Notes: generated from the letters alone by a model not told the origin. Counted from the stretch's first letter, positions 9,035-47,300 are shown. The stretch is DNA of 64,000 nucleotides from Candidatus Kapaibacterium sp. (GCA_026390695.1 JAPLFL010000103.1:8963-72962), one strand, 5' to 3'. Numbers and translations: made by a program.

Positions 9035-9201
9035 AAGATCGTTTCCTACTTGAAAGCTGTCATTTGTGCGTATGCAGGAATCCTCTTCCATGGCGCAATT
9101 GGGGATTCCTGCATTCGCAGGAATGACAAGAAAAGGTAGTTTTCACACTGTCTCATGCGCGGGAATGACAATAATTCCTAATTCATTAAGGAAATGATAT
9201 A
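9035..9201. repeat. Composite MITE/REP locus: outer TA-ended MITE, REP doublet and a GAG-type right end
   Basis: Ends ATCGTTTCCTACTTGAA and TTCATTAAGGAAATGATATA. GGATTCCTGCATTCGCAGGAATGAC inside; CACACTGTCTC|ATGC junction at 9154. Confidence 0.85.
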
Positions 9202-9324
9202 ATCAAGCAAGGGTGAAATAATAAAAGTTTTGATTATATTGCGAAAAATTATTAACTTTGTAACTTAATATTAAATACTGGGAAAAAAGAAAAAAATATT
9301 TCCGATAAATAAAAGGATCATTTT

Positions 9325-10872
9325 ATGAAGTTATTTTTTATTTTAATTATTGTTTCTTCCTTTTTGATTAGTTCTTGTGTTGGAATATTTGCAACTCATG
9401 ATCAGAAGCTCGTGATTACAACTAATAATCCTTCTGCAGCTGTTTATGTGGACAGCACAAATGTTGGTAATGGAGACAAAGTCGAAGCTATCGTTGAGAG
9501 GGACAGACATGAAAAACAATTTATGATGGTATCCGACAGCACGAAACCATTATACCAAGTTGCCATACCTACAAAAACTCATTGGCTTTATTATTTGGAT
9601 TTTCCCTGGATTGTTACAATAATTGGGATTTATGTTCCAATGTTTGACGGCATGATTTCTAAATGCAATGTCTTTAAAGAAAATTGGAGTTTAGACATAC
9701 CGTATATGTATCGTTTTTGGGATTCATCAACGAAAAAAGTGTACATAGATAATGTTTGCCTCGACATTAAAAAAGGTAAAAGTAAGTTAAAATCATTCAC
9801 TTATAATGATTATCTAAAAAATGATGATCCAATCGAGACAAAAGACCTTGATAGTTTGGTAATTAAACACTCGAATTTAGATGAACATCTGGAAGAGATA
9901 ATGAAAAAAACTTATTTTCAGGATTCTGTTCCGAGCGTTTTTATTGATAATATTAACACCTATTACTTTAAAGCTGTTGTGAAAAATGTAAATATAAATG
10001 ATGTCGCTGATAATTACATGGTTATTAAGGGGTATCGTGCTGGTGCTGAGTTTATGTATATGGATATGGAATGTAAGTGGATAGTTGAAGATACTTATGG
10101 AGATACAGTTTATGTTGATTCAATAGCTTCAAAATCTGGTCAAATTGGCACTCATCTTAATAAATGGTCAGCCGCTGTAAAACTGGCTATGGAAGATGCT
10201 CTCGAAACATCTTTGATAAAATTTATGGAAACTACGGCTGTTAAAGAGTTACTTAAAAAAGATACTTTGAGACATTTGATCTTTGATAAATTAACTATTC
10301 CTAAACCAAGTAAAACACCATCCAATATTGACGATGCAATGAAAGCCACTGTGACAATTAAAATCGGGAAAAATAAAGGGCACGGATCAGGATTTTTCAT
10401 TTCAAATGACGGTTATATAATTACAAATCATCATGTGGCAAATAAAAAATTGAAATTAACTGTAATCACTTCTGAAGGAACAGAATATGAAGCCAAGCTT
10501 ATTCGTTCAAATAAAGTCATTGATCTGGCCATACTAAAAATTGAAGGAAAATCTGAATTCGCATATAATATTCCGGCAGAAAAGAATTTCAAAACCGGAC
10601 AGGAAATATTTGCTATTGGTACTCCCAAATCTATCGAATTGGGGCAATCAATTTCAAAAGGAATTATCTCAAGTTTAAGAAAAAATAAAGATTTGAATTT
10701 CCTGCAAATTGATGCAAGCATCAATCGCGGCAATAGTGGCGGTCCGATAACCAATACTAATGGAGATTTATTAGGTGTTGTAGAATCAAAATTATTTGGA
10801 GTTGGGACGGAAGGAATTTCATTTTCAATCCCTGCTTTTGATATAATGAATTCATTATCAATTTCTTATTAG
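9325..10872 (+). CDS. Lipoprotein with C-terminal trypsin-like (S1C) serine protease domain
   Basis: Lipobox ISSC; GSGFFIS, TNHHV (H), DLAILKI (D) and INRGNSGGP (S); no PDZ domain. Confidence 0.88.
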   Translation: MKLFFILIIVSSFLISSCVGIFATHDQKLVITTNNPSAAVYVDSTNVGNGDKVEAIVERDRHEKQFMMVSDSTKPLYQVAIPTKTHWLYYLDFPWIVTIIGIYVPMFDGMISKCNVFKENWSLDIPYMYRFWDSSTKKVYIDNVCLDIKKGKSKLKSFTYNDYLKNDDPIETKDLDSLVIKHSNLDEHLEEIMKKTYFQDSVPSVFIDNINTYYFKAVVKNVNINDVADNYMVIKGYRAGAEFMYMDMECKWIVEDTYGDTVYVDSIASKSGQIGTHLNKWSAAVKLAMEDALETSLIKFMETTAVKELLKKDTLRHLIFDKLTIPKPSKTPSNIDDAMKATVTIKIGKNKGHGSGFFISNDGYIITNHHVANKKLKLTVITSEGTEYEAKLIRSNKVIDLAILKIEGKSEFAYNIPAEKNFKTGQEIFAIGTPKSIELGQSISKGIISSLRKNKDLNFLQIDASINRGNSGGPITNTNGDLLGVVESKLFGVGTEGISFSIPAFDIMNSLSISY

Positions 10873-10908
10873 TTATATGAAGAAAACTAACTTAAAAGTT
10901 TTGTTTCT

Positions 10909-11165
10909 GAGGCAGTCTCATAACCCACAAATATACGAAAGCTGTCATTCCCGCATGCGAGCATGTGTAAAAACTCCTTATTGCTGTCATTCCTGCGAAT
11001 GCAGAAATCTCCTAAGGTGCCATAGATGGGGATTCCTGCGTACGCAGGAATGACATTTTTGTTAAATATGTGGCTTTTGAGACGGCATCAATTGATGATT
11101 TTCGGAAACATGAAAAGTTATTTAAATTTGTAGGTTTTTACACAGTCTCATTCGCAGGAACTGTC
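10909..11165. repeat. Composite MITE/REP locus
   Basis: Imperfect inverted ends GAGGCAGTCTCATAACCCACA (10909) and TGTGGCTTTTGAGACGGCATC (to 11089). REP doublet inside; GAG junction at 10959 and CTC junction at 11149. Confidence 0.85.
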
Positions 11166-11201
11166 ATGATTATAGAAAGCACAAATTAGTATGAAAATAT
11201 T

Positions 11202-11234
11202 ATTCATCTGATGACTGCCAGTCATCGGATGAAT
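11202..11234. repeat. Isolated palindrome ATTCATCTGATGACT-gcc-AGTCATCGGATGAAT
   Basis: 15-bp stem with one mismatch, about 90 bp upstream of the next CDS. Confidence 0.65.
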
Positions 11235-11322
11235 GATTATAAAGCCTTCAATCCTAAGCATCAGATAATTAATTATTCGCTATATTTGTACTATTAGTTT
11301 ATTTTAAAATAACTATTCCAAA

Positions 11323-13344
11323 ATGCAATTATTTATCTATTATTCTATATTTGTGATATTTTCAACTTCTGCTCTGAGTCAGTCGCTTTCTGTATTTAGT
11401 ATAGATACTTCCGCATTCCCTGTAATTAAAGCCAAGTTTTATGCTTTTGATGCAGTAGGAAATCAGATACGTAGCTTATCAGCGTCAGATTTCTTTGTTA
11501 CTGAAAACGGGCAGCCACGAACTGTTTTGGCTGTATCTTGTCCGGCTCCGAAACCACCCGTTGCTTTGTCATCTGTGCTGGTGATGGATCAGTCTGGTTC
11601 TATGTTTGAAGGAACAAAATTAGATGCAATTCATCAGGCTGCTGCAGCTTGGATCAATGCGCTTCCCGGGAAATCGGAATGTGCAATTACATCTTTTGAT
11701 AATTCCAATTATATTATTCAGGATTTTACCACAAGTAAAAGTTTACTTATCCAAAAAGCCGCTACCATCACAGCGAACGGAGGGACTGATTACGATATGG
11801 CGCTGGATATTCCTATGGCTGGTGGTATATGGATGGCAAAAGCAGGGAAATATAAGCGAATCATCGTTATGATGAGCGACGGAGAGCCTAATTTCACACC
11901 TAATACTCAGCAAATCATTAATGATGCACTTTCAAATTCAGTTATAATATATTTTGTGTCACTTGGCTATCCCAGCCTCCAGTGCATGAAAGATATTACA
12001 ACAAAAACCGGGGGACAGTATTTTGAAAAAATTAGTACTGTCGAAGAAGCAAAGCAAGTTTATATGAAAATCATGCAATCTGCAACTGGCAGCGATCCTT
12101 GCGAAATTAGCTGGGTTAGCCAAGTGAATTGTAAGCCAAGTACGATGAATGTAGATGTTAAGGTAAATTCTCTTAATCTGGCTGCTAATGCTGTATATCA
12201 GGCTTCAATCAGTTCTGCTACTCAACTTGAATTTGCACCTTCAACTATTGTCTATAAAAATGTTTTGCCCGGAACAAAGAAGGATACTATTGTCAGGATA
12301 ACGGCGCGTAATGCGGATTTCACGGTTTCGGATATTAAACTTTCCAATTCTTCTGTATTTTCTATTGATAAAAAGAATTTTATTCTGAAGAAAGATTCAA
12401 GCATTGATTTGACTATTAGTTTTGCTCCCACTGACAGCGGCTATTGTATATGTAAGTTCATTTTTGTAAATGATGTGTGTCCTGCAAATTACTATGCCCG
12501 AGGTGGCTTTCCAGGCAAATTTCCAATTATTCATTCGATAAATCTTGTCCAACCAAATGGCGGACAAGTCTTTTTAGCTGGCTCTGATACTGAGATTACT
12601 TGGGATGGCGTGACGCCGCAAGAAAACGTGAAGCTGGAATATAGCATAGACAGTGGTAAAACATGGATATTTATTTCGGACACTGCTTCAGGACTAAGTT
12701 ATATGTGGCATGTTCCGAATACTCCGAGTAATATCTGCTTGGCGCGAGTGACTGCCAAAGCTAATTATGATGATTGTCAAGTTCGGATTGGTAATCAGAT
12801 TTGGATGTGTAAAAATCTTGATGTGGATCATTACCGTAATGGTGATTCAATTCCGCAAGTAACGGACTATAAAGTTTGGGGAACTCTTACAACTGGTGCA
12901 TGGTGCTATTATAATAATTCCGATTCATTAGGAGAAATTTATGGAAAACTTTATAATTGGTATGCTGTTACTGATAAGCGTGGATTAGCTCCTGTTGGAT
13001 GGCATATTTCAAGTGATGCAGACTGGTCAGTATTGCAGAATTATCTTGGTGGTTTGGCAATAGCCGGAGGCAAATTAAAGGAGCAAGGAATAGCCCACTG
13101 GACAGATCCTAATGTTGGTGCGACGGATGACTTTAAATTTACCGCCTTACCCGGTGGTTACAGAAGTAATTATACTGGTAATTTAAATTTTGATAATTTG
13201 ATGCTGAATGCTTACTGGTGGACTTCAACTGGATCAAGTTTTACAAGAGCATGGTCAAGATATTTATCCAATACTTCTTATGAATTGTTTTTTTCTGAAA
13301 TTCTTTATAATTATGGTCTATCAGTTCGTTGCGTTAAAGATTAA
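11323..13344 (+). CDS. Secreted VWA plus Ig-like plus Fib_succ_major (FISUMP) domain protein
   Basis: Signal peptide, MIDAS DQSGSM, MMSDGEP, and the FISUMP motifs IGNQIWMCKNL..YGKLYNWYAV..LAPVGWHI..ALPGGYR..YWWTS..GLSVRCVKD. Confidence 0.88.
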   Translation: MQLFIYYSIFVIFSTSALSQSLSVFSIDTSAFPVIKAKFYAFDAVGNQIRSLSASDFFVTENGQPRTVLAVSCPAPKPPVALSSVLVMDQSGSMFEGTKLDAIHQAAAAWINALPGKSECAITSFDNSNYIIQDFTTSKSLLIQKAATITANGGTDYDMALDIPMAGGIWMAKAGKYKRIIVMMSDGEPNFTPNTQQIINDALSNSVIIYFVSLGYPSLQCMKDITTKTGGQYFEKISTVEEAKQVYMKIMQSATGSDPCEISWVSQVNCKPSTMNVDVKVNSLNLAANAVYQASISSATQLEFAPSTIVYKNVLPGTKKDTIVRITARNADFTVSDIKLSNSSVFSIDKKNFILKKDSSIDLTISFAPTDSGYCICKFIFVNDVCPANYYARGGFPGKFPIIHSINLVQPNGGQVFLAGSDTEITWDGVTPQENVKLEYSIDSGKTWIFISDTASGLSYMWHVPNTPSNICLARVTAKANYDDCQVRIGNQIWMCKNLDVDHYRNGDSIPQVTDYKVWGTLTTGAWCYYNNSDSLGEIYGKLYNWYAVTDKRGLAPVGWHISSDADWSVLQNYLGGLAIAGGKLKEQGIAHWTDPNVGATDDFKFTALPGGYRSNYTGNLNFDNLMLNAYWWTSTGSSFTRAWSRYLSNTSYELFFSEILYNYGLSVRCVKD

Positions 13345-13371
13345 CATAACAAAAAAGAATTATATTTTATT

Positions 13372-13632
13372 TTGAAATGTATTGTAGGTATTTTGATTAT
13401 GTTTATTAATTCTTTGAATTAGTTTATGTATGTTTTGAAATATCTTATTGATAATTTGCAATAGATTATTTATATTTCATATATGATTAAAGATGATTTG
13501 AATTGTCTTATAAGTATTTTGAATGCTCTTAAAGATGATTTGAATTGTCTTATAAGTATTTTGAATGCTCTTAAAGATGATTTGAATTGTCTTATAAGTA
13601 TTTTGAATGCTCTTAAAGATGATTTGAACTAA
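13372..13632 (+). repeat. 21-bp-period tandem array, left arm of a foldback
   Basis: Three exact 42-bp units AAAGATGATTTGAATTGTCTTATAAGTATTTTGAATGCTCTT (13489-13614), plus degenerate 21-bp units upstream. Confidence 0.85.
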
Positions 13633-13642
13633 TTCAAAAGGT

Positions 13643-13890
13643 TAATAAGAGCATTCATAGAGCTAATAAGAGCATTCATAGAGTTAATAAGAGCATTCAT
13701 AGAGTTAATAAGAGCATTCATAGAGTTAATAAGAGCATTCATAGAGTTAATAAGAGCTTTCAAAAGTATAATAGGAGCATTCAAAATATCTATAAGAGTA
13801 TTCATAGTGTCAATAAAAGTATTCATAGAGCTAATAAGAGCATTCATTAGGTTCATAATGATTTTCAAATGTATGATAAGATATTTCTCA
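13643..13890 (-). repeat. 21-bp tandem array, right arm of the foldback, inverted relative to the left arm
   Basis: TAATAAGAGCATTCATAGAG(T/C) x5 from 13643, then about 7 progressively diverged units. The reverse complement shares TGAATGCTCTTA with the left array. Confidence 0.88.
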
Positions 13891-13891
13891 T

Positions 13892-14090
13892 GTCATTCCC
13901 GCGAATGAGACTGTATAAAAACTCTTTATTTCTGTCATTCCTGCGAATGAGATCGTGTAAAAACTCTTTATTTCTGTCATTCCTGCGAATGTAGGAATCC
14001 CCTTCCATTGGCGCATTTGGAGATTGTAGCATTCTCAGCAATGTCAGAAGAAGAATAAATGGAGATTGCAGCCTTCGCAGGAATGTCAGG
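13892..14090. repeat. Composite REP locus with serially nested GAG-type ends
   Basis: TGTCATTCCYGCGAAT|GAGA..GTRTAAAAACTCTTTATTTC repeated at a 41-42 bp period (GAG at 13908 and 13949), followed by a degenerate REP doublet. Confidence 0.85.
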
Positions 14091-14146
14091 ATTATAATTT
14101 TTAGATTTCCAAACTGATTCTACTTTTAGGTAATTTTATTATTATG

Positions 14147-14177
14147 AAAAAAAAAGGGATGCAATTTCTTACATCCC
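14147..14177 (-). terminator. Rho-independent terminator of the lipoprotein genes
   Basis: Minus strand GGGATGTAAGAAATTGCATCCC followed by a run of T. Confidence 0.75.
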
Positions 14178-14201
14178 ATTCTTTCAAATATCAAATATCA
14201 A

Positions 14202-15023
14202 TTATTTTACTGCTTTGTATCTCAGAAGTACAATATCCGAACCGGTAAAATTAAACTTGGTTAAAGTCTGTCCGAGAACAGTTATCGGAATTGAGATTGA
14301 TGGGGTGTGAACACGGACCATTCCTATTTCCGAATTCATGTAATGATGAACTTGTATTGTAAAGACTAATGGAACGGGGAATGTCAATCCTAAATAAACA
14401 ACGGTTGCTGTACCGCTAAAAATAAATTGAGTTGTGAAATCTTCGCACAGTGCGGATTTTGCTTCGTTTTCTCCGTAATTCACAGTCACAGACGGGCTTT
14501 TGAACATTCTCATTGTATATTTACCATCTACAGTTGCAGTGGAACCGTTGAATGGGATTTGCAAGCCTTTGATGGTCGTATCAATTAATTTCCATGCTGT
14601 ATCCATTGGATTTGTTGACGCCAATTTGGAGAAACCACCTGCTACAGGGAGTGGAATAGGAAATCCCATTATATTGGTTGTGCCGGGGTATAAATATTCA
14701 TTATTGCAGAAGAGTGAGTCTTTTGCCATGGTATAAAATGCTGAAGAATCGGATATACCGGTCATTCCTGAGGTTTGCATTCTTGATATGATCCGCGTTC
14801 CAACTGTATCCCGTCTGATAACAACAAGAGAATCCTGAGCAAAGCTATCAGTTCTCTTGTTTAAAGTATCAAGATTATAATGTAAATAAGTCCAGTATGA
14901 TCCTTTGTTAATTGGGATATAAGTTTTAGGAGCATCGACAGGTGGATTTGTCGTCCCGTTATCGGAGCAATATGTCAGAAAGCCAGCAAGTAGAATGGCC
15001 GCAATTAATTGGAATTTTTTCAT
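14202..15023 (-). CDS. Hypothetical lipoprotein, paralogue of 15107-15916
   Basis: Lipobox LTYC, YIPINKGSYWTY motif, C-terminus LLRYKAVK. Confidence 0.8.
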   Translation of the reverse strand: MKKFQLIAAILLAGFLTYCSDNGTTNPPVDAPKTYIPINKGSYWTYLHYNLDTLNKRTDSFAQDSLVVIRRDTVGTRIISRMQTSGMTGISDSSAFYTMAKDSLFCNNEYLYPGTTNIMGFPIPLPVAGGFSKLASTNPMDTAWKLIDTTIKGLQIPFNGSTATVDGKYTMRMFKSPSVTVNYGENEAKSALCEDFTTQFIFSGTATVVYLGLTFPVPLVFTIQVHHYMNSEIGMVRVHTPSISIPITVLGQTLTKFNFTGSDIVLLRYKAVK

Positions 15024-15106
15024 AGAATATTTCGTTTATAAGTTAACAAATATGTTTTCGAATTAATTTCATTAGTAAGACTAATTTTTGTAAAAAAAGT
15101 TTCAGT

Positions 15107-15916
15107 CTATTTTAAATGATATCTTAAAAGTGTTCTGTTGTATCCACCGGTTTTTTGGGACATTATTGTCATGTTAAAGGTGGAAGGATCGGTCACATCG
15201 GACACAAAACCAATATTATTGCCGACATAATAATGATAAGTCATATTGCTTTTTGTGTTTATCGGAACGGGTAAACCGGGTATAGTAATGGTTACATCTA
15301 TTTTTAATGTTAAAAGGAATGCTTTAGTAATAACGTTTGAGCTGCCAATCTGGAAACTTTTGTCTGCCGATGGCTCTCCCTGCATCTCTACTGAACCATT
15401 TATCGGTATCGGAAGCGGAAGTTTGAAGGTGGTGGAGTCAATAGGCATTTTGAAGACTCGCCATAATGAAGCAGTAAAATCAAGCATTGTACTCCAGTAT
15501 TTCGGAATACTGCTGATTGAGGAATCCATGCCTAATCCTGAAACATTAAGTCCTGACACATCCGAGTAACGATAGATTTTCTCGTTAGTAAAACGATAAT
15601 AAACGTGAACAGATGTGTCTGTAATCCTTTTAAATGTTGAATCAAAAGTAAAAGTTTTATAATCAAAGCCGGCAGTGTCGTTCAATGTGATTGGTCCGAC
15701 TAAGACCACGGAATCGTAAGTGGCAGACAAAGGATGAGCCACACCATTTGTATCTATCGGGATGTTCTTATAAATCCAGTAAGAGCCAATTGTGGTTGGG
15801 AAATATGACCCGAATTTGGAACTTGGTGGATTACTGGAATTTGAATTCCCATCAGAACAGGAATAAATACCAAGAACAAGAACTATTGCAAAGATTAGAG
15901 TAATTATATTTTTCAT
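15107..15916 (-). CDS. Hypothetical lipoprotein
   Basis: Lipobox IYSC, YFPTTIGSYWIY motif, C-terminus LLRYHLK. Confidence 0.8.
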   Translation of the reverse strand: MKNIITLIFAIVLVLGIYSCSDGNSNSSNPPSSKFGSYFPTTIGSYWIYKNIPIDTNGVAHPLSATYDSVVLVGPITLNDTAGFDYKTFTFDSTFKRITDTSVHVYYRFTNEKIYRYSDVSGLNVSGLGMDSSISSIPKYWSTMLDFTASLWRVFKMPIDSTTFKLPLPIPINGSVEMQGEPSADKSFQIGSSNVITKAFLLTLKIDVTITIPGLPVPINTKSNMTYHYYVGNNIGFVSDVTDPSTFNMTIMSQKTGGYNRTLLRYHLK

Positions 15917-16105
15917 TTTTGACTCATTATATTTAAAAAATATGACACGAACAAAGATTTATAATATTTTAAATCATTAAATAATTTGAATACTAATAAT
16001 CATATTTATAATTACACTTGAATAAATAAAAGGTTTCAAAAACTTTTTAGATAAAAGTAAGAAATATAATTATACCGACTAAAAAAACATCATAATTTGT
16101 AATTA

Positions 16106-17629: not shown

Positions 17630-17770
17630 ATAAACTCTGAAATATTTTATAAAAAACACTTTACAAAATTAACTTTTATCGCATTGATAATAACTATAAT
17701 TATTTGTTATATGAAACATTTTAAAAAATTATTCGTAAATTACAGAAGTTTAAGTACATGGAGTTGAAAA

Positions 17771-19155: not shown

Positions 19156-19194
19156 TTTTTTAGTTAATTATTTATTTTATTCCTTATTGTGGTT

Positions 19195-19391
19195 GAGACT
19201 GTCTCAAAGGTAGAATATTTACCAAAAATGTCATTCTCGCGCATGAGACTGTGTGAAAACTACCTTTTCTTGTCATTCCTACGCATGCAGGAATTCCCAA
19301 TTGCGCCATGGAAGCGGATTTCTGCATGCGCGGGAATGACATTCCATTGGAATTTCCTCGCGTTCACACACTCTCATGCGCAGGAATGACA
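19195..19391. repeat. Composite MITE/REP locus
   Basis: GAGACTGTCTCAAA at 19195, GCAT|GAGACTGTGTGAAAACT at 19245, inner REP doublet, and CTCTC|ATGC at 19375. Confidence 0.85.
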
Positions 19392-19442
19392 GATGCGATG
19401 CTTTTAAAACTTCCGCTTAGGTGTGTTTGTCATTTTGAGAGT

Positions 19443-23374: not shown

Positions 23375-23458
23375 TCAACCAACTTTATGAACTGACAAAC
23401 TCATTCATCGGGGTAGCCGAAAACCGTGCAGAGTAGGCATAATTTATTAGGAGATTTT

Positions 23459-24293: not shown

Positions 24294-24302
24294 ATACAAA
24301 AT

Positions 24303-24450
24303 CGGGAATCCACTTCCAGTGCCAAATAATGGGATTGCTGCAACTGAGCCTGTGGTAAAACTGAGGAATTTATATTATTTCATCCTGGACAAAGCGAAGG
24401 ATCACTCCAAATATGGCTGTAAGAGATATTCTTCGCTTTGCACTGGATGA
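24303..24450. repeat. Degenerate REP/GAG-end remnant plus a second palindrome type
   Basis: CGGGAATCC..CCAGTGCCAA..GGGATTGCTGCAACT|GAGCCTGTGGTAAAACT, then CATCC..AAAGCGAAGGATC...TTCTTCGCTTTG..GGATGA (24380-24450). Confidence 0.65.
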
Positions 24451-24559: not shown

Positions 24560-24585
24560 TAATTTCGCTATTAGACGAAATGACA
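24560..24585. promoter_or_regulatory. Putative ArsR operator 1
   Basis: TTTCG-ctattaga-CGAAA inverted repeat just upstream of arsR1; a near-identical site lies upstream of arsR2. Confidence 0.6.
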
Positions 24586-24605
24586 AATTGAAATATATTT
24601 AAATT

Positions 24606-24950
24606 ATGAAAAAATTACTTAAAATATTTAAAGCCTTATCTGATAAAAACAGAGTCAGAATTTTATTAATGCTAACCAAGAAAAAGCTCTGTGTCTGCGA
24701 GATTCAGGACATTCTCGGTATTACAGTTTCAACTGTCTCCAAACATCTATCTATTTTGAGAGATGTTGAATTCATAAATGATGAAAAAGATGGCAAATGG
24801 GTGAATTACAGCCTCAATACTGCCTCGAAGGATATTGTATTAAACCAGATAATGCTTATTTTACCCTTTTATCTTAATGATGATGAATTAATAAAATCCG
24901 ATTTCGAAAAAGTTAATACTGTTTGTAGAAAAAATTTATGCAACATTTAG
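24606..24950 (+). CDS. arsR: ArsR/SmtB metalloregulator, copy 1
   Basis: FKALSDKNRVRIL, LCVCEI (CVC site), VSKHLSIL and GKWVNYSL. Confidence 0.92.
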   Translation: MKKLLKIFKALSDKNRVRILLMLTKKKLCVCEIQDILGITVSTVSKHLSILRDVEFINDEKDGKWVNYSLNTASKDIVLNQIMLILPFYLNDDELIKSDFEKVNTVCRKNLCNI

Positions 24951-30902: not shown

Positions 30903-30945
30903 GGACGATGGACTTTTAATTGAAAGAAAATGACAAAAGCCGAAA

Positions 30946-31029
30946 AACCCCTCCCTAACCCTCCCCGAAGGGGAGGGAACAAAGCCACAATCCAATTCCC
31001 TCCCCTTCGGGGAGGGTTAGGGAGGGGTT
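30946..31029. repeat. Hairpin A: perfect 34-bp inverted repeat with 16-bp spacer
   Basis: AACCCCTCCCTAACCCTCCCCGAAGGGGAGGGAA (30946-30979) and its exact reverse complement (30996-31029). Confidence 0.95.
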
Positions 31030-31096
31030 CTTCGCTGATTATGAAGCTGTTCATCAATTTTAACAGCAACTATGTTAACTAATCCATTCACTTTTT

Positions 31097-31465: not shown

Positions 31466-31512
31466 GAACAAGTTATTTGCTCAAATAGTGAGATTTGCGC
31501 TGAAACAAGCCC

Positions 31513-31602
31513 AAGAACCCCTCCCTAACCCTCCCCGAAGGGGAGGGAACAAAGCCACGATACAATTCCATCCCCTTCGGGGAGGGTTAGGGAGGGGTTC
31601 TT
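31513..31602. repeat. Hairpin B: direct copy of hairpin A
   Basis: Same 34-bp arms (one mismatch) and a similar spacer, 570 bp downstream of hairpin A. Confidence 0.95.
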
Positions 31603-31652
31603 CTGTGTGCTACGGAGATATCTTATAATAAAAACATTATGAAAGAACACTT

Positions 31653-32396: not shown

Positions 32397-32422
32397 GTAA
32401 TTTCGCTATTGAACGAATTGAC
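32397..32422. promoter_or_regulatory. Putative ArsR operator 2
   Basis: TAATTTCGCTATTGAACGAATTGACA, near-identical to the site upstream of arsR1. Confidence 0.6.
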
Positions 32423-32443
32423 AATTTAGAATATATTGAAATT

Positions 32444-32803
32444 ATGGAAAAATTACTTAAAATATTTAAAGCTCTATCTGATAAAAACCGTGTTAGAATT
32501 CTTTTGCTACTGACAAAGAAGAAGCTCTGTGTGTGCGAGATTCAAGACATTCTTGGTGTAACTGTTTCTACAGTTTCAAAACATTTATCAATATTGCGTG
32601 ATTGTGATTTTATTATTGATGAAAAAGATGGTAAATGGGTGAACTACAGCCTCAATACTGCTTCTAAAGATATTGTTTTAAATCAAATTCTATTAATTCT
32701 GCCTTTTTATCTAAATAATGATGAATTAATTCAATCCGATTTCGAAAAAGTAAATTCCGTTTGCAGAAAAAATTTATGCAACATTTTATTGAATATTTCG
32801 TAA
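32444..32803 (+). CDS. arsR: ArsR/SmtB metalloregulator, copy 2
   Basis: About 90% identical by eye to 24606-24950; LCVCEI motif. Confidence 0.92.
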   Translation: MEKLLKIFKALSDKNRVRILLLLTKKKLCVCEIQDILGVTVSTVSKHLSILRDCDFIIDEKDGKWVNYSLNTASKDIVLNQILLILPFYLNNDELIQSDFEKVNSVCRKNLCNILLNIS

Positions 32804-36911: not shown

Positions 36912-36975
36912 TACAAATTAATATTATTAAGGAAATCACTTTTATATAATTCATTACTTTATTAAAAGGCAAATA

Positions 36976-38058: not shown

Positions 38059-38094
38059 ATTTTACAACTAATTAACAATAAAAATGGGGACAAA

Positions 38095-38544: not shown

Positions 38545-38559
38545 TAAAAAAGGAGTAAA

Positions 38560-38943: not shown

Positions 38944-38968
38944 TTATATTATAATTAATTTCATAAAT

Positions 38969-39228
38969 AATATCATTTCCTAAATGAATTAGGAATTACT
39001 GCCATTCCCGCGCATGAGCTTGTGTAAAAACTCACAACTTCTATTGAATTGTCATTCCCGCGCATGCGGGAATCCCCATCCAGTACCAATCAGGAGATTC
39101 CTGCATGCGCAGGAATGACAGAAAAAGATAGTTTTTACACAGGCTCGCATGCGGGAATCCCCATCCAGTACCAATCAGGAGATTCCTGCATACACACAAA
39201 TGACAGCCTTCAAGTAGGAAACAATATA
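38969..39228. mobile_element. Complete three-layer nested element: TA-ended MITE > REP doublet > 131-bp GAG...CTC MITE (39016-39146) with a GCAT duplication
   Basis: Inner ends GAGCTTGTGTAAAAACT and AGTTTTTACACAGGCTC (1 mismatch), flanked by GCAT at 39012-15 and 39147-50. Outer ends TATCATTTCCT and AGGAAACAATATA. Confidence 0.88.
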
Positions 39229-39323
39229 AGATGAAGTATTTATTAAGAAAAAGCAATTTATCATAACTCAAAAAAAATCAACCCAGAACTTTAAATTTTA
39301 TAAACTTTCAACTTAGAAATTAT

Positions 39324-40031: not shown

Positions 40032-40149
40032 ATAATAAGTAAAAAAATATTGAAAATTAAACAATTGGATTATAAATAAAATTAAAATTTATAAATACAA
40101 TAAATTGATAAAATGAACGTTTTAAAGAAAAATTACAAATAGGTACAAA

Positions 40150-41065
40150 ATGAAATTAATAACTTATCTAAATCTTGAAAATCAGGAAAGATTAGGACTT
40201 TATATAAATGGAAAAGTTGCGGATATGCAACTTTCTGCACTTGAAAAATTACGGTGATTTTTTAACAAGCTTTAAACTCATTGCTCCTGTTCCACATCCT
40301 CCTTCATGTAGAGATGGATATGCTTTCAGACAGCACGTTGCTGCCGCCAGAAGGAATCGCGGAGTGGAAATGATCCAAGAATTTGATCAATATCCGATTT
40401 TCTATTTCACTAACCATAATAGTATAATTGGTGGTGGAGATTTAAATGTAGAACTTGATCATTTGATGAAGTTGGACTTTGAACTCGAACTTGCTGCTGT
40501 AATTGGAAAGAAAGGTAAGAATATTCCATCTAATGAAGCAGATGATTATATTGCCGGTTTTACAATTATGAATGATTTCTCAGCTCGTGTCCTTCAAATG
40601 GAAGAAATGTTGCTCAATTTAGGACCCGCAAAAGGGAAAGACTTTGCTACTGCAATCGGCCCTTGGCTTGTAACTCCAGATGAACTTGAAAATTATAGAA
40701 TTTCTACCGAATTTGGAAATGTTTATGATTTATCAATGAAAGCATATCACAGAAGTTTACTTGTTTCATCGGGTAATGCTAAAGATATGAACTGGACTTT
40801 TGCTGAAATTATCGAAAGGGCTTCCTATGGCACTGAGATTTATCCGGGAGATGTTATCGGTTCCGGAACTGTTGGAACTGGCTGCTATCTTGAGATAAAC
40901 GGAACTCGTGCACGCGAAGCCAAAGAAAAAGGCAAAGAGTACAATCCTGTTTGGCTTCAAAATGGGGATATTATTTCATTGGAAATTACCGGCTTGGGGC
41001 GCCTGACCAATAAAGTAGTACTAAGTGATAATAATGTTTCGATATTAAATAAAAAAAAATCCTGA
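40150..41065 (+). pseudogene. fahA: Fumarylacetoacetate hydrolase, split by a frameshift near 40250
   Basis: Frame 1 from ATG 40150 reads MKLITYLNLENQERLGLYINGKVADM and stops at 40255-57. Frame 2 continues LIAPVPHPPSCRDGYAFRQH..LDFELE..NDFSAR..GSGTVGTGC. Confidence 0.75.
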
Positions 41066-41095
41066 TATAGATTAAAAATAAATTATAGGTATAAT

Positions 41096-42097
41096 ATGTT
41101 TGAATTTGAAGTTAAAGATTTAAGTATAAATAAAATATCGGCTTTATTGACTTACGGAGTTTCTCCGCGTCCTATTGCCTTGGTTTCAACAATTTCACAA
41201 GATGGCGTAAATAATCTCTCACCATTTTCATTCTTTAATGCATTTGGTTCCAATCCGCCGGTTGTGGCTTTTTCACCTTCCCGAAGAGTGCGTGACGGTT
41301 CACTGAAGGATACTTATCATAATCTGATCGAATCAAAAGAATGTGTGATCCATGCTGTTAGTTATGCAATGGTTGAACAGGTCAATCTTGCATCTTGTGA
41401 TTATCCTCCTGAAGTGGATGAATTTATCAAAAGTGGTTTTACTCCTATTGAATCTGACTTAGTTAAGCCCAGAAGAGTGATGGAATCTCCTTTTCAGATG
41501 GAATGCAAGCTGATTCAAATGGTTAATTGTGGAGATGAGTTCGGTGCTGGCAATATTGCGATTTGCGAAGTTTTAAAGTTCCATATTTCCGAAAAAGTTT
41601 ATCGGGATGGGAAAATTGATCCTGCATTATTAGATTTAGTAGGCAGAAACGGAGCGGAATATTATACTCATGCAAATAAATCTTCACTGTTTACTGTTAT
41701 GAAACCGGGCACAAAAAAAGGGATGGGTTTTGATAATCTACCGGATTTCATTAAAGATTCATCAATATATACAGCAAACAATTTAGGGAAAATGGCTTTG
41801 CTCGAAAAGTTGCCGACTCAGGAAGAATTAGATGATTTTATAAAAACAATTGAATCCTTAAATGAACTGGAATTTGTTGAAGCAACCGAAGCAAATTTTG
41901 TACGTTTTTCAGATACAAGGGATTATAGGCAAATGTTCGCAATCGCTTATGTTCTTCATTTAAAGAATAATCCTAAGGTAGGGAAATACATTGAACTTGC
42001 AGCTAAGGCAGCCATTGATGTTAATGATTTTGATTTCGGTATAAAAGCAGCAGTATGGAGAGGAAAGTTCATTGAAAGTAGAAGGATAGGAAATTAG
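41096..42097 (+). CDS. Flavin reductase (DIM6/NTAB) family protein with C-terminal extension
   Basis: VSPRPIALVST..NLSPFSFFN..DTYHN..ESPFQMEC..GRNG..YTHA. Confidence 0.9.
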   Translation: MFEFEVKDLSINKISALLTYGVSPRPIALVSTISQDGVNNLSPFSFFNAFGSNPPVVAFSPSRRVRDGSLKDTYHNLIESKECVIHAVSYAMVEQVNLASCDYPPEVDEFIKSGFTPIESDLVKPRRVMESPFQMECKLIQMVNCGDEFGAGNIAICEVLKFHISEKVYRDGKIDPALLDLVGRNGAEYYTHANKSSLFTVMKPGTKKGMGFDNLPDFIKDSSIYTANNLGKMALLEKLPTQEELDDFIKTIESLNELEFVEATEANFVRFSDTRDYRQMFAIAYVLHLKNNPKVGKYIELAAKAAIDVNDFDFGIKAAVWRGKFIESRRIGN

Positions 42098-42337
42098 AAA
42101 GCAGAAAAAGAGTTTTTAATTTTTTTAACGTTCCTGTTACCTCCTACTTTTCTACTTTCAATTCTGCTACCTTCTATAACCGGGGCAGGGGAGATTTAAG
42201 TAAGTTCTTTCTTTGAATTTAATATTTTAATAGAATTCAATTATTTTAAATATACAATTTCATATTAATTATATCCAAAGAAAATATAATCCTAATTTTA
42301 TCGTTTTTATCCACTTTAGAAATATTTTGAGGCAACA

Positions 42338-42544
42338 ATGAATACTTTTTATGAAATAATCGAAGAAACAAATAAGTTTTCTATTGATGAACAGGAAACA
42401 TTTGTTGAAATTTTACAAAAAAGAATTTCTGCTGAAAAGAGAATAAGAATAATTGATGAAGCAAGAGAATCTCGTTTAGAATTTGAGTCGGGTGATAAGC
42501 AAACAACAAGTATTGATGATATAATGAAAGAAATTCTCACTTGA
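42338..42544 (+). CDS. Putative type II antitoxin
   Basis: Acidic 68-aa ORF overlapping the toxin start (TTGA). Confidence 0.7.
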   Translation: MNTFYEIIEETNKFSIDEQETFVEILQKRISAEKRIRIIDEARESRLEFESGDKQTTSIDDIMKEILT

Positions 42545-42840
42545 GCTATTACCTTGTCAAATCATCAAATTTTATTCGATCAGCAAAGAAACTTGCCAGA
42601 AAATATCCGAATTTTCTGATAGAATTGAATGAAACTTTGAAAATATTAACTTCTAATCTTTATGATAGCAGATTAAAAACACACAAACTTAATGGTGAAA
42701 TGAAGGAATTTTGGGCTTGTAGTATAAATTACGAACTTAGAATTATTTTTCAATTGGTTAATGCAATTGATGAAGAATCTGGCAATACTGTAGAAGCAAT
42801 TCTATTAAACAATATAGGGACTCATGATGAAGTGTATTAG
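42541..42840 (+). CDS. RelE/YafQ-like mRNA interferase toxin
   Basis: FIRSAKKL, LKTHKLNG..WACSINYELRIIF and NIGTHDEVY. Confidence 0.85.
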   Translation: MSYYLVKSSNFIRSAKKLARKYPNFLIELNETLKILTSNLYDSRLKTHKLNGEMKEFWACSINYELRIIFQLVNAIDEESGNTVEAILLNNIGTHDEVY

Positions 42841-42930
42841 TTGAAAATGTAAAACAATCCATTTCAAAGCTTAAACCCCTCCGAAAGTATTTTTCTATTC
42901 TGATGTTTTAAAATGATTTAAAAAATATAT

Positions 42931-45129
42931 ATGCAATCTGCTCAACCACTTTGGTACCCATCACCTGATCAAATTAAAAACTCAAACATGACAAAATTCA
43001 TGAATTTTGTCAATGTGAAATTTGATCTGAATTTTTTAGATTATTATAATCTTTACGATTGGTCAATTGATAGAATTGAAGATTTTTGGGTAGCGATTTG
43101 GGAATTTTCTGAAATCATTTATTCGAAATCATATAAAACAGTTTTGGATGATCGGAAAATGCCCGGCTCTAAATGGTTTCAAGGTGCTGAACTAAATTTT
43201 GCTGAGAATCTTTTAAAATATCGAGATGATAGAATTGCTCTTATTTATAATAATGAAAAAAATGAGAGAATTAGCCTTTCATATCGTGAACTTTACGCAC
43301 AGGTTGCCGAATGCGCTGCGGGACTAAAAAAGCTTGGAGTTAGAAAATGTGATAGAGTTGCAGCATTAATTTCTAATATCCCTGAGGCGATTATTGCAAT
43401 GCTTGCCACGACCTCGATTGGTGCAGTTTGGTCATCAACATCGCCGGATTTCGGATTAAGCGGGATTCTTGACCGCTTTGAACAAATCAATCCAAAGGTT
43501 CTGTTTGCAGTGAATGGATATACCTATAACGGAACAGATTTTGATTGCTCAGAAAAAATCGAAGGAATTTGTTCGCAAATTATTAGTTTAGAGAAAATTG
43601 TCATCATTCCGAAAATTCAATCGACAATTGAAAATTTAATTCCTGTTAATTCTGAGAATGCAGGAATCATCAATTGCGAATCTTCTGTCATTCCTGCCAA
43701 TTCAGGAATCTCCTTCCATTCCACCATAGGAGATTCCTGCATTCGAGAGTGTGTGAAAACTCGAAATAATAACGTATCTGTCATTCCCGCGCATGCGGGA
43801 ATTCCCTTCCAGTACCAATCAGGGGATTCCTGCATTCGCAGGAATGACAACGGAGAAGTTACAAATGACACTGAAGATATGGACAGCAAAAGTAAATTTA
43901 TCTTCTGGAATGATTTTATTGATAAAAATGCAGTAGAAATTGAATTTGAACAATTGCCATTTGATCATCCTGTTTATATTATGTATTCATCGGGTACTAC
44001 AGGTGTACCGAAATGTATCGTTCATGGCGCTGGTGGAACTCTGCTTCAGCATTTCAAAGAGCTCAGCCTCCATACTAATCTAACACGGGATGATGTGATT
44101 ACTTATTTTACGACTTGTGGCTGGATGATGTGGAACTGGCTTGTGAGTTCACTAAACAGCGGCGCAACAATTTTTCTATTCGATGGCTCACCTTCATATC
44201 CGAATATAAACATTCTTTGGAAAACAATTGAAGTTGAAAAAATAACAATTTTCGGTACAAGCCCGAAATTCCTGAGTACATGCCAAAAATCAGGTATTAA
44301 GCCTGGAAGAGAATTTGATCTTTCATCATTAAAAACTATCTTATCAACCGGCTCTCCTCTTTCGTCAGATGAATTTCAATGGGTATATTCCGATGTTAAA
44401 ACTGATATTCGCTTATCTTCAATTTCTGGCGGCACGGATATTATCTCGTGCTTTATGTTAGGAAATCCTAATCTTCCGGTTTATTCGGGTGAGATTCAGT
44501 GCCGTGGATTAGGAATGAAAGTCGAATCTTATGACGAAAATGCAGATGGAATTATAGATGTAAAAGGGGAATTAGTTTGCACTGCACCTTTTATTTCGAT
44601 GCCTGTATATTTTTGGAATGACCCTGAAAATAAATTATATTTTAATAGTTACTTCAATGTTTTTACCGATGTTTGGTGCCATGGTGATTTTATTAAAATA
44701 ACTGATAGAGGTGGTGTGATTGTTTATGGTCGTTCTGACGCAACTCTTAACCCTGGTGGCGTGCGTATCGGATCTGCAGAAATTTATAGAGTTATAGAAT
44801 CAATTGAGGAAATAAACGATAGTATAGTCGTGGGAGTCAATCATGATAATGATATTCGGATTGTACTTTTTGTTGTTACCAAATTAGATATTAATTTAAC
44901 TAATGAATTAATTGTTAAAATAAAATCCAAGATAAGGGTAATGCTCACTCCTCGGCATGTTCCTTATATTATAAAGGCAATAAACCAAGTACCAGTGACA
45001 TTCAATGGTAAGAAAGTAGAATTAGCAGTTACAAAAATACTTAATGGTGAACAAGTCAAAAATTTAAGTGCAATTGCTAACCCGGAGTCACTGGCACAGT
45101 TTGTTGATATTATATCGTTTCCTACTTGA
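42931..45129 (+). CDS. Acetoacetyl-CoA synthetase with an in-frame REP-derived insertion
   Basis: WFQGAELNFAENLL, FDHPVYIMYSSGTTGVPKCIVH, TTCGWMMWNW, ISGGTD and GRSDATLNPGGVRIG; about 70 aa of repeat-derived insert. Confidence 0.92.
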   Translation: MQSAQPLWYPSPDQIKNSNMTKFMNFVNVKFDLNFLDYYNLYDWSIDRIEDFWVAIWEFSEIIYSKSYKTVLDDRKMPGSKWFQGAELNFAENLLKYRDDRIALIYNNEKNERISLSYRELYAQVAECAAGLKKLGVRKCDRVAALISNIPEAIIAMLATTSIGAVWSSTSPDFGLSGILDRFEQINPKVLFAVNGYTYNGTDFDCSEKIEGICSQIISLEKIVIIPKIQSTIENLIPVNSENAGIINCESSVIPANSGISFHSTIGDSCIRECVKTRNNNVSVIPAHAGIPFQYQSGDSCIRRNDNGEVTNDTEDMDSKSKFIFWNDFIDKNAVEIEFEQLPFDHPVYIMYSSGTTGVPKCIVHGAGGTLLQHFKELSLHTNLTRDDVITYFTTCGWMMWNWLVSSLNSGATIFLFDGSPSYPNINILWKTIEVEKITIFGTSPKFLSTCQKSGIKPGREFDLSSLKTILSTGSPLSSDEFQWVYSDVKTDIRLSSISGGTDIISCFMLGNPNLPVYSGEIQCRGLGMKVESYDENADGIIDVKGELVCTAPFISMPVYFWNDPENKLYFNSYFNVFTDVWCHGDFIKITDRGGVIVYGRSDATLNPGGVRIGSAEIYRVIESIEEINDSIVVGVNHDNDIRIVLFVVTKLDINLTNELIVKIKSKIRVMLTPRHVPYIIKAINQVPVTFNGKKVELAVTKILNGEQVKNLSAIANPESLAQFVDIISFPT
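43640..43849. repeat. Composite REP/GAG-end locus inside the acetoacetyl-CoA synthetase CDS
   Basis: TGTCATTCCTGCCAATTCAGGAATC, ATTC|GAGAGTGTGTGAAAACT (43745), and a full doublet at 43779-43849. Confidence 0.9.
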
Positions 45130-45279
45130 AGGCTGTCATTCCCGCGCATGAGACTGTGTGAAAACTTCAATTTCTTGTCATTCCTGCGCATGCAGGAATC
45201 CCCAAAATGTGCTACAGGAAGGGGATTCCCGCATGCGCGGGAATGACAATAATTCCTAATTCATTAAGGAAATGATATA
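45111..45279. mobile_element. TA-ended MITE carrying a REP doublet and a GAG end; supplies the stop codon of the synthetase
   Basis: TATATCGTTTCCTACTTGAA ... TTCATTAAGGAAATGATATA; the TGA at 45127-29 lies inside the left end. Confidence 0.85.
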
Positions 45280-45322
45280 AATGACATTTTGCGTTTTCTA
45301 TTCAGTGGTAGGTATAAATTAA

Positions 45323-45353
45323 AAACCCTTGCATTTAATATTTGCAAGGGTTT
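45323..45353 (-). terminator. Terminator downstream of tRNA-Phe
   Basis: AAACCCTTGCA-N9-TGCAAGGGTTT stem. Confidence 0.75.
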
Positions 45354-45367
45354 GTATTTTATTGCCG

Positions 45368-45440
45368 TGCTCAGGGCCGGAGTTGAACCAGCGACACATG
45401 GATTTTCAGTCCATTGCTCTACCAACTGAGCTACCTGAGC
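45368..45440 (-). tRNA. tRNA-Phe (GAA), CCA not encoded
   Basis: GCTCAGG/CCTGAGC acceptor stem, TAGCTCAGTTGGTAGAGC D-arm, CTGAAAA anticodon loop and GGTTCAACTCC T-arm. Confidence 0.96.
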
Positions 45441-45530
45441 CGATCTGCATTAAAGCAGAAAACAAAATTACGACTTATTTTTGAATTATCCAAAAAAAAT
45501 ATTAATTATTTCTATTAAATCATATTTTTT

Positions 45531-46922
45531 TTAAAAATCAGTATTCATTGCCAGTGTTGTGCTGATGTCCTGCTGCGCATTATGCTTTTTATCAAGTTGT
45601 TTTACCTCAATATAGAGTAAAATCCCTGTTAAGACCGATGAACAAAAATCAGCTATAGGAGCAGAATACCAGATTCCATCTGTATGGAAAAATTGTGGTA
45701 ATATCAGCATCAGTGGCAGAACAAAAATGATTTGCCTCGTTAAAGTCAATATTAATGTCTGGGTTGGCTTTCCGACTGCCTGAAAATATACAGAACTTAC
45801 AACTTGAAATCCAATTACTGGTAACATAATAAGATAGATTCTAATAGCGTGGGTGCCCATTTCGATAAGAGCATGGTCATTATCACAAAATTTAGAAATC
45901 ATTTCTCGTCCGAATATATCAACTACTAATAAACCAATAATTCCGATTGAAACCGCTGCAAATATTGATAACCTCAATGTTGATTTAACACGGTCGAATT
46001 GCTTTGCACCGTAATTGAAGCCGATTATCGGCTGCATTCCCTGATTGATTCCAAAGATGGGCATCATAATAAACATAGCAATTGGACTGATTATTCCCAG
46101 AACTGCTATAGCTGTGTCGCCACCATACATAGTTAATGCCTTATTAGCAACGGAAATCGTGATTGCTCCTGCTATGTGCATCACAAAGAAAGGGAAACCG
46201 ATTTTCATTATCTGCGCTACAATTTCATATTTTAGCTTGAAATTCGAATAATGAAAATGCAAATGGCTTCTCTTTTGAAGGAAATAAGCAAAAATCCAGA
46301 TAAGTGAAACTAATTGTGCGATAACCGTAGCCAGAGCCGATCCAGCCATACCAAGTTTGAAAATAACGATAAATAACGGATTAAGAACAATATTGATTAA
46401 TGCACTAATAATCATGGTTATCATAGCGGTTTTGGGATTTCCTTCAGCACGTATCACATTATTCAGGGACCATGCTATTGATTGAAAAACTCCACCAACT
46501 AACGATATTTTCAAAAAAGTACGTGCATATTCCAGAACCGTTCCTTGAGCACCAAATGAAATTAATAAGGGGTCTAAGAAAATATACAAAATTCCGGTAA
46601 CAATAGTTGATAATATTAAAGACAGTGAGAACACATTACCTAAAATAAGTTCAGCTTCCTTTTTTTTCCCTTCTCCTAATTTCAGTGAAACGGCTGAGGA
46701 AGCGCCGAATCCGAGTAGCATACCAAATGCAAAAAATACCATGATTATAGGCATTGATATGTGAATCGCCGATATTCCTAAGGTGCCAACAACATTGCCG
46801 ATAAAATATCTGTCAATTAGTGAATAAGAAGCCATCACACCCATTCCGATCATACCGGGAAGAGAAAAGCTAAAGAGCAGTTTCCCTATTTTTTCGTTTC
46901 TTAATTTTTCTGTTCTATCCAT
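45531..46922 (-). CDS. MATE family efflux transporter
   Basis: SLPGMIGM..SLIDRYFIG, RAEGNPKTAM, GSALATVIAQ, QPIIGFNYGAK and FQAVGK. Confidence 0.93.
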   Translation of the reverse strand: MDRTEKLRNEKIGKLLFSFSLPGMIGMGVMASYSLIDRYFIGNVVGTLGISAIHISMPIIMVFFAFGMLLGFGASSAVSLKLGEGKKKEAELILGNVFSLSLILSTIVTGILYIFLDPLLISFGAQGTVLEYARTFLKISLVGGVFQSIAWSLNNVIRAEGNPKTAMITMIISALINIVLNPLFIVIFKLGMAGSALATVIAQLVSLIWIFAYFLQKRSHLHFHYSNFKLKYEIVAQIMKIGFPFFVMHIAGAITISVANKALTMYGGDTAIAVLGIISPIAMFIMMPIFGINQGMQPIIGFNYGAKQFDRVKSTLRLSIFAAVSIGIIGLLVVDIFGREMISKFCDNDHALIEMGTHAIRIYLIMLPVIGFQVVSSVYFQAVGKPTQTLILTLTRQIIFVLPLMLILPQFFHTDGIWYSAPIADFCSSVLTGILLYIEVKQLDKKHNAQQDISTTLAMNTDF

Positions 46923-47148
46923 AAAAATTTATTTCATTTATTTTAATTACGTATTGACGATTCAATTTTCAATTTCATGTATTAAAAATTGAGCATTAAA
47001 TAAATTCATTTTGAGACGAGGCTAAAAAGCTTAATGTAATAAAATTTCTAATTGGTTATTGAGTTTAAAATTAACTTTAAATGCACAATTAGATTATAGT
47101 TAACCTGAGGTTTTAGGCATTTAAGTGTAATTATAGAAACTCAAAATT

Positions 47149-47300
47149 TGTCATTCTTGCGAAAATCATCAATCGAGGCCGTCTCAAAAGCCACATATTT
47201 AACAAAAATGTCATTCCTGCGTATGCAGGAATCTCCTTCCAGTGCCAATTTAGGGGATTCCTGCATTCGAGACTGTGTAAAAACTATGAAATTCCAATGG
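47149..47300. repeat. Composite MITE/REP locus
   Basis: GAAAATCATCAATCGAGGCCGTCTCAAAAGCCACATATTTAACAAAAATGTC is a near-exact reverse complement of 11051-11103. ATTC|GAGACTGTGTAAAAACT at 47269. Confidence 0.85.

Follow-up and report, generated by a model that had tools for sequence, protein, structure and literature searches.

The repeats with GAG-type ends in a 64,000-nucleotide (nt) stretch of DNA from Candidatus Kapaibacterium sp. (GCA_026390695.1 JAPLFL010000103.1:8963-72962; the whole stretch is here called the window, and positions are counted from its first letter) very likely belong to a MITE (miniature inverted-repeat transposable element) derived from insertion sequences (ISs) of the IS1182 family. 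The GAG ends would be its 17-bp terminal inverted repeats (TIRs), the 4-nt loop of a repetitive extragenic palindrome (REP) its insertion site, and an inverted pair of REPs, or REP doublet, its cargo. An earlier note, made from the sequence alone, had guessed at an IS1182/IS5-like transposase behind these repeats. That guess proved apt, and full-length elements with an identical TIR encode IS1182 transposases (NCBIfam NF033551), have 4-bp target duplications, and prefer the centers of palindromes.

Organization of the elements and their REP target

The window is AT-rich (G+C content of 33.8%), and its REPs take the form tgtc-ATTCCYGC-N4-GCRGGAAT, mostly paired as inverted doublets of 71 bp, much as the earlier note had described them. 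A window scan for ATTCCYGC-N4-GCRGGAAT with at most one mismatch gave 14 matches against 0.01 expected, and a looser scan gave 16 REPs in 8 clusters. The loops are GCAT/ATGC or GAAT/ATTC almost throughout. The REP 20-mer folds into a 4-nt loop on an 8-bp stem (-8.8 kcal/mol), and the 71-bp doublet folds into a single long hairpin (-25.9 kcal/mol; z = -8). No Rfam family matched the window repeats.

A window scan for the end sequence GAGACTGTGTAAAAACT with at most three mismatches gave 12 GAG ends (consensus GAGACTGTGTRAAAACT) against 0.18 expected, and a 13th, degenerate end was recognized at 19359-19375. The remaining matches with three mismatches, located inside genes and without a REP, were discarded as chance occurrences. 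At all 13 ends, exactly 4 nt separate the end from an outer ATTCCYGC-like REP arm, and all 8 REP clusters of the window have a GAG end. The ends reported earlier as starting or stopping at the 4-nt loop are real, with one position corrected from 13908 to 13907, but the left and right classes into which they had been divided are one TIR in two orientations. In total, the ends make up 3 complete elements and 7 solo ends.

The complete elements, at 39016-39146, 19245-19375, and 10959-11149, have the 17-bp TIR GAGNNTGTGTRAAAACT at both ends, are 131 to 191 bp long, and contain no transposase gene; the family is multicopy in the window, and its TIRs have 1 to 4 mismatches. Both 131-bp copies share one layout, consisting of a 17-bp TIR, a 9-nt spacer, the 71-bp REP doublet, a 17-nt spacer, and a 17-bp TIR, and they are copies of one element carrying a REP doublet as cargo rather than chance associations. 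The element is asymmetric, with one short-spacer end and one long-spacer end, and the orientation of the doublet spacer relative to these ends is mostly constant. The copy at 39016-39146 folds into a long hairpin (-38.4 kcal/mol; z = -9.7).

Two kinds of junction were distinguished. In type A, one REP is split by the element and its loop is duplicated; in type B, a REP doublet contributes only its outer halves, one on each side of the element (tgtc-arm-loop ... loop'-arm-gaca). The element at 39016-39146 (plus strand) is of type A and is made up of a TIR at 39016-39032, a 17-nt spacer, the cargo doublet at 39050-39120, a 9-nt spacer, and a TIR at 39130-39146. The left half of the host REP (39000-39015) consists of tgcc ATTCCCGC followed by the loop GCAT, and the right part (39147-39205) consists of the second GCAT, which is the target duplication, the arm GCGGGAAT, cccc, and what remains of the host doublet, in which the right REP is degenerate. 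The earlier description of this locus as a complete 131-bp element in one split REP with GCAT on both sides holds, and it is the only place in the window with matched 4-nt flanks around a single split REP. The two other complete copies are of type B. The unit at 19229-19391 (plus strand) consists of tgtc ATTCTCGC GCAT, the 131-bp MITE at 19245-19375 with a degenerate right TIR, and ATGC GCAGGAAT gaca. The unit at 10943-11165 (plus strand) holds the 191-bp element between the loops ATGC and ATTC; in addition to the REP doublet (10985-11055), this element contains 77 extra bp (11056-11132) that recur, reversed, at 47160-47233. That the half REPs are mere extensions of the TIR was considered and rejected as a general rule: REPs adjoin the TIR in both orientations, and a single intact REP is rebuilt from the flanks of type A copies.

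IS1182 relatives and recurrence of the junction in other genomes

A junction scan for TTCCYGC-N4-GAGNNTGTGTRAAAAC, with one genome per species, found at least 78 loci, which span Cloacimonadota (many of them in Ca. Cloacimonas BF2_31), Ignavibacteria, Kapaibacterium, Bacteroidota, Alpha-, Beta-, and Gammaproteobacteria, and Chloroflexia. Among the matches listed, the sequence inside the TIR differs widely, and 48 of the 69 non-anchor TIR ends also lie 4 nt from a REP arm. Matched 4-bp duplications, which the earlier note had named as a check on its reading, were found once in the window and, with the window case included, at eight split single REPs among the matches listed (ATTC, GCAG, GGAG, CTCC, GAAG twice, CTGC, and GCAT); in four further split REPs from the same matches, three of the four loop bases agree. 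Both junction types recur elsewhere, and the loops of type B are reverse complements (for example, at L021, L036, L042, and L072). In several type A cases, MITEs with unrelated interiors entered a solitary REP surrounded by unique DNA, and these are the strongest evidence for independent, site-specific insertion. One locus in an Ignavibacteria metagenome-assembled genome (L020) has a 131-bp MITE with the same ends and the same kind of REP doublet as target, carrying a different hairpin as cargo, and MITEs with the GAG TIR in several phyla have a GTCAT...CC hairpin adjoining the TIR. When metagenomes were scanned strictly for a self-target signature, made up of inner REP, TIR, loop, and outer arm, 0 matches were obtained. 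In Ignavibacteria and Cloacimonadota, short-read genome assemblies are broken by the elements, with contigs ending at them.

The TIRs are identical to those of full-length IS1182 elements. A betaproteobacterial copy (L075) is 1669 bp long, has the same TIRs, lies after cgtcATTCCCGC-GAAA, and encodes a 500-amino-acid (aa) transposase with DUF772 and DDE domains, and a disrupted full-length copy is present at L014. When the window and the 78 loci were searched by tblastn with an IS1182 transposase, only these two matched; no transposase lies within a 1405-bp TIR pair in L055 or between the ends in L022 and L054. The nearest annotated relatives are ISPpu20-like IS1182 elements (45% identity). On two Pseudomonas plasmids, such elements have the TIR CAGRCTGTGTGAAAAC and occupy the loop of a terminator-like hairpin, the 5 nt of which are duplicated. 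The same type of TIR and 4-bp duplications, often at palindrome centers, were seen in relatives from rhizobial plasmids and viral contigs.

A metagenome scan for the TIR GAGACTGTGTRAAAAC together with conserved YGY codons at the right distance gave at least 120 loci with a full-length left end. Flanks were compared for the 68 distinct complete copies (1.43 to 1.75 kb) among the matches listed. The flanking 4-mers form a perfect 4-bp duplication in 32 of the 68 copies, agree at three of four bases in 15, are reverse complements in 6, and fall into none of these classes in 15; the flanking 8-mers are complementary at six or more of eight positions in 24 copies, compared with 4% in the control. 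Several full-length copies (L152, L203, L209, and L132) lie inside GTCATTCC(C/G)GC REPs (GTCATTCCCGC), and the ends of AT-rich copies (L157, L202, L214, and L147; G+C of 0.32 to 0.37) are identical to the window consensus. Three transposases score 365 to 451 bits on NF033551, for which the cut-off is 270. The six copies with reverse-complement 4-mers (including L210, L130, L132, L127, and L183) have them within long perfect palindromic flanks, which in L210 extend over 24 of 24 positions; replacement of a long hairpin's tip would be expected to leave such flanks.

Proposed insertion mechanism

The following mechanism takes the full-length relatives as its model; these come from genomes other than that of the window, in which the transposase would have acted in trans. 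An IS1182-family DDE transposase would bind the TIRs and integrate the element at the center of a hairpin-forming palindrome, with cuts in the two strands that are offset by 4 nt. In a REP, these cuts would fall at both edges of the 4-nt loop, so that gap repair would duplicate the loop and give type A. Because the 71-bp cargo doublet and the target belong to one REP family, every insertion would put direct repeats of 16 to 60 bp (cargo versus host doublet) side by side, and recombination or slippage between them could delete one end and leave a solo end, as perhaps at 43745-43849. Type B may have arisen in either of two ways. Insertions into both REPs of a doublet may have been followed by recombination between the copies, or the long hairpin of the doublet may have had its tip replaced in one step, as for IS1272.

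The earlier note had gone further and proposed a self-propagating system. The element does carry a REP doublet of the family that it targets; however, the copies are diverged and, because the TIRs carry 1 to 4 mismatches and more than half of the ends are solo, they fit a decayed family rather than a currently self-propagating one. That IS1182 members target hairpins and palindromes is already known, and the window system is not a new kind of system. What is new is the MITE form, the cargo of a REP doublet from the target's own family (in the window lineage and BF2_31), the layered mosaics, and the breadth of hosts. A DDE transposase cutting at the edges of hairpin loops, together with a nonautonomous derivative carrying the same hairpin, would provide a concrete mechanism for a REP mosaic. 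It would join three separate literatures, on REP-targeting ISs, on hairpin targeting by IS1182 and IS1272, and on REP doublets and arrays resembling neisserial intergenic mosaic elements (NIMEs), and it suggests a test of DNA structure directing a DDE transposase.

Solo ends and layered arrays

The seven solo ends are distributed over six loci. At 9058-9170 (minus strand), a REP doublet (9058-9128) is followed by a 9-nt spacer, a TIR (9138-9154), and the loop ATGC with a half REP (9155-9170), and the locus shares 93% identity with the reverse complement of 19229-19327. At 24300-24362 (plus strand), the right REP of a truncated doublet is cut after the loop AACT and adjoins a degenerate TIR (24346-24362). 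The locus at 45134-45248 (plus strand) contains a half REP with GCAT (45134-45149), a TIR (45150-45166), a 9-nt spacer, and a cargo doublet (45176-45248). At 47209-47306 (plus strand), a host doublet (47209-47268) is cut after ATTC and followed by a TIR (47269-47285) and a collapsed hairpin, gaaATTCCaatGGAATgac.

The locus at 43686-43849 (plus strand) lies inside a gene. Here a host doublet (43686-43744) is cut after ATTC and followed by a TIR (43745-43761), a 17-nt spacer, and a cargo doublet (43779-43849), and the host sequence ATTC-GCAGGAAT-gaca is the same as the end of the cargo doublet. The gene (42931-45129) encodes an acetoacetyl-CoA synthetase with about 82 extra residues in frame, and its 732-aa open reading frame (ORF) stays open; the insert, at about 43640-43890, is composed of two REP doublets with the solo GAG end between them. 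The closest homologues, 119 in number, are 634 to 664 aa long, and the named ones come from Ignavibacteria and relatives, the group to which the window probably belongs. The insert is missing from six aligned homologues and from PDB 4wd1 and falls in a variable linker; the homologues are without the whole repeat block, and the comparison does not isolate the MITE. Elements of this kind can thus sit in frame inside genes. Rickettsia palindromic elements (RPEs), reportedly described by Ogata et al. in 2000, are likewise said to be palindromic repeats placed in frame in protein-coding genes that are kept open; they have no sequence relation to the window repeats, and RPEs are not known to have IS1182-type TIRs.

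The remaining two solo ends belong to an array at 13891-14088 (plus strand), in which two 42-bp units precede a REP doublet (13975-14047) and an extra REP (14065-14088). Each unit consists of a half REP, GAAT, a TIR (starting at 13907 or 13949), and the spacer ctttatttc, and right TIRs are absent. A related arrangement is seen in Ca. Cloacimonas BF2_31 (L006, L012, L043, L051, L058, and L071), in which onion-like arrays have the structure [tgtc-arm-GGAG-TIR-spacer]n, core, [spacer-TIR-CTCC-arm-gaca]m. The left and right layer counts are in part unequal (1+3, 2+3, and 2+2), and the arrays are enclosed by a further inverted repeat, ggcattccccc.../...gggggaatgcc.

The region 13892-13990 had been read in the earlier note as serial nesting, which is an interpretation; that these half-REP-plus-TIR arrays (42-bp units in the window and 36- to 44-bp units in BF2_31) arose by local tandem duplication or slippage is an even chance. 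The units at 13891-13974 share the spacer ctttatttc, other copies having other spacers, and the loop GAAT occurs three times running; Tandem Repeats Finder gives 2.7 copies of the 42-bp unit with an 85% match, no right ends occur at 13891-13990, and the left and right layer numbers differ in BF2_31. However, the two window TIRs, with differences at 4 of 17 positions, are less alike than the remainder of the unit, and in BF2_31 a core has layers to its left and right, an arrangement that repeated insertions into the inner doublet with subsequent deletion would produce.

Alternative origins of the repeats

Several observations weigh against a MITE that inserted repeatedly into REP loops. The window has one type A insertion only, and neither the element at 19245 nor that at 10959 is a simple insertion into a single REP. 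Because the window loops are nearly all GCAT/ATGC or GAAT/ATTC, the GCAT/GCAT match taken alone is weak evidence. At the same locus, 39061-39106 and 39146-39191 are 100% identical over 46 bp, so that the inner and interrupted doublets, which the earlier note had linked by a shared spacer, are more alike than it had claimed. This identity is not predicted by insertion from elsewhere and would need gene conversion or a local event; a long target duplication was rejected, the left copy being located within the TIRs. The scanned ORFs of the 64-kb window included no transposase of any kind, and the transposase bounded by such ends in a REP loop that the earlier note had proposed to seek was found elsewhere, in L075 and in metagenome copies. 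The same note had proposed a comparison of empty and filled alleles. No empty allele (tgccATTCCCGC-GCAT-GCGGGAATcccc, shorter by 131+4 bp) was found in the two Logan samples carrying the organism; in the same-strain contigs, one locus is filled in both samples, and the contigs otherwise break at the repeats. Protein look-ups for further strains of the organism gave nothing useful. In addition, the presence of a GAG end at all 8 clusters and the stretches that are 92% to 93% alike fit the copying of larger units equally well.

Such copying is the basis of an alternative in which the TIRs are relics and blocks of REP, TIR, and REP spread only as larger units, with few or no independent MITE insertions. 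The candidate routes would be whatever moves REP doublets, recombination, or a shell element, here called module X. Module X forms an outer shell around REP doublets in three copies, at 9035-9203, 38969-39230 (reverse), and 45110-45281; its sides are tatcRtttcctacttgaaRgc and ataattcctaattcattaaggaaatgatata, with the inverted ends ATCRTTTCCT/AGGAAAYGAT, and it may be a second TIR-bounded element. Stretches of 72 to 99 bp that include the outer half REP and loop are 92% to 93% identical among 9072-9170, 19229-19327, and 45134-45205, three loci lie inside the same outer module X, every REP cluster of the window has a GAG end, the TIRs are diverged, and 7 of the 13 ends are solo, all of which would suit this alternative. 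Nevertheless, the sequences beyond tgtc/gaca differ between loci, and the module X paralogues at 9035-9203 and 38969-39230 have the same degenerate REP1 and different TIR-plus-spacer variants against the same ATGC-GCGGGAAT half. These differing flanks and module X contents count for independent insertions. The element at 39016 moreover interrupts one REP, the loop of which is present at either end, and unrelated elements make the same junction in many genomes. An origin of the repeats by block copying only is therefore improbable, and insertion of an IS1182-derived MITE is preferred.

Still less probable is an alternative in which the whole palindrome (tgtc-arm-loop-TIR...TIR-loop'-arm-gaca) moves as a single-strand hairpin mobilized by a REP-associated tyrosine transposase (RAYT), with the GAG ends as passengers: type B units are common (19229-19391, 10943-11165, L021, L036, L042, and L072), have exactly the limits of REP doublets, and fold as one long hairpin, but this movement leaves the loop-duplicating type A insertions and the full-length IS1182 copies at the same position unexplained, and the reverse-complement flanks of six full-length ISs point to the IS1182 enzyme. 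A RAYT-like gene was found neither in the window nor in about 0.5 Mb of related loci by a tblastn search (window, 78 loci, and two same-strain contigs; ~0.55 Mb), which is a weak test, the query being an Escherichia coli sequence.

Comparison with known repeat systems

The window system is best filed as a MITE derived from the ISPpu20-like clade of the IS1182 family. It shares with this clade, whose TIR is (C/G)AGNCTGTGTRAAAAC, the TIR itself, the 4-bp duplication (5 bp in the ISPpu20 copies), and insertion into a palindrome at its center or at its loop, which is duplicated, and it differs in that the elements are 131 to 191 bp long and have a REP-doublet interior instead of a transposase gene. 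Some IS1182 members target palindromes, and IS1272 of staphylococci, also of the IS1182 family, targets hairpins and replaces stem-loops without duplication; one published model predicts duplication of the hairpin loop (PMC5678879, PMC4923244). Replacement of the hairpin tip as by IS1272 would yield type B in one step (PMC5678879, PMC4923244). In contrast, IS1272 deletes part of the hairpin and makes no target duplication, whereas type A in the window keeps both arms and duplicates the loop.

A fixed insertion position in a REP is also known for IS1397 and ISKpn1 (IS3 family), ISPpu9, ISPpu10, ISPa11, and ISPsy8 (IS110), ISRm22, and IS621 (PMC1525189, PMC3184786). Their transposases are of other families, or had not been assigned to IS1182 at the time, and they are full-length ISs rather than MITEs, none of which is reported with its target as cargo. 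The likeness to IS1397 is one of behavior only, the window ends and the related transposases being of the IS1182 family.

NIMEs are likewise mosaics of repeat units separated by REPs (PMC1797815). The dRS3 pattern ATTCCC-N8-GGGAAT, to which the earlier note had likened the REP core, fits the C variant, present in 3 copies, but the others of the roughly 16 REPs carry ATTCCT. In NIMEs, complete dRS3 copies, which are the target of a phage IS110-type recombinase, flank the RS units, whereas the window unit splits the REP at its loop. NIMEs are also described as Neisseria specific, whereas the window has a G+C content of 34% and its closest homologues are named Ignavibacteria. The window system is not a NIME.

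RAYT-mobilized REP doublets forming hairpins (REPINs) and bacterial interspersed mosaic elements (BIMEs) resemble the window doublets in that short palindromes are paired in inverted orientation over about 70 bp and form one long hairpin, mostly just downstream of genes. Unlike them, every window doublet is linked to a GAG end, and one cluster lies inside a gene. It is conceivable, although unlikely, that the GTCATTCC...GGAATGAC REP doublets are altogether cargo, spread by a MITE that plants its own integration sites and so builds onion- and NIME-like mosaics, rather than a RAYT-driven family. The GAG ends at 8 of 8 clusters, the GTCAT...CC hairpins beside the TIR, and the BF2_31 layers are compatible with such an origin. 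If it were true, the same process might underlie the dRS3/RS arrays of Neisseria and similar REP families in other phyla.

Other features of the window

A palindromic TIR-like motif, GAGRCNGTCTCAWAR, occurs about 20 to 25 nt upstream of tgtc-REPs at about 10912, 19193, 47178, and 11086 (reverse), and 47160-47233 shares 96% identity with the reverse of 11031-11104. The motif may represent a diverged TIR family or a collapsed element. A second family of GC-rich palindromic doublets (CCCTCCCC-GAAG-GGGAGGG) forms inverted pairs at 30937-31033 and 31507-31603, which are 95% identical and lack GAG ends, a hint of some selectivity of the MITE among hairpins. AT-rich tandem arrays with 21-bp periods and about 10 copies each lie at 13413-13847, just upstream of the 13891 cluster, and include a 42-bp unit in 3.4 copies with 100% identity.

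The region 100-5467 encodes a tyrosine integrase (415 aa in a longer Logan contig, L233), helix-turn-helix proteins, and a small-terminase-like protein beside the transfer-messenger RNA gene (5103-5467, minus strand), and it looks like an element integrated at ssrA. A 389-bp duplicate with 83% identity (24560-24948 and 32398-32786) lies over an ArsR-family regulator gene. The Rfam DUF805b RNA motif matches 23407-23439, upstream of a DUF1761 gene, just at the gathering score.

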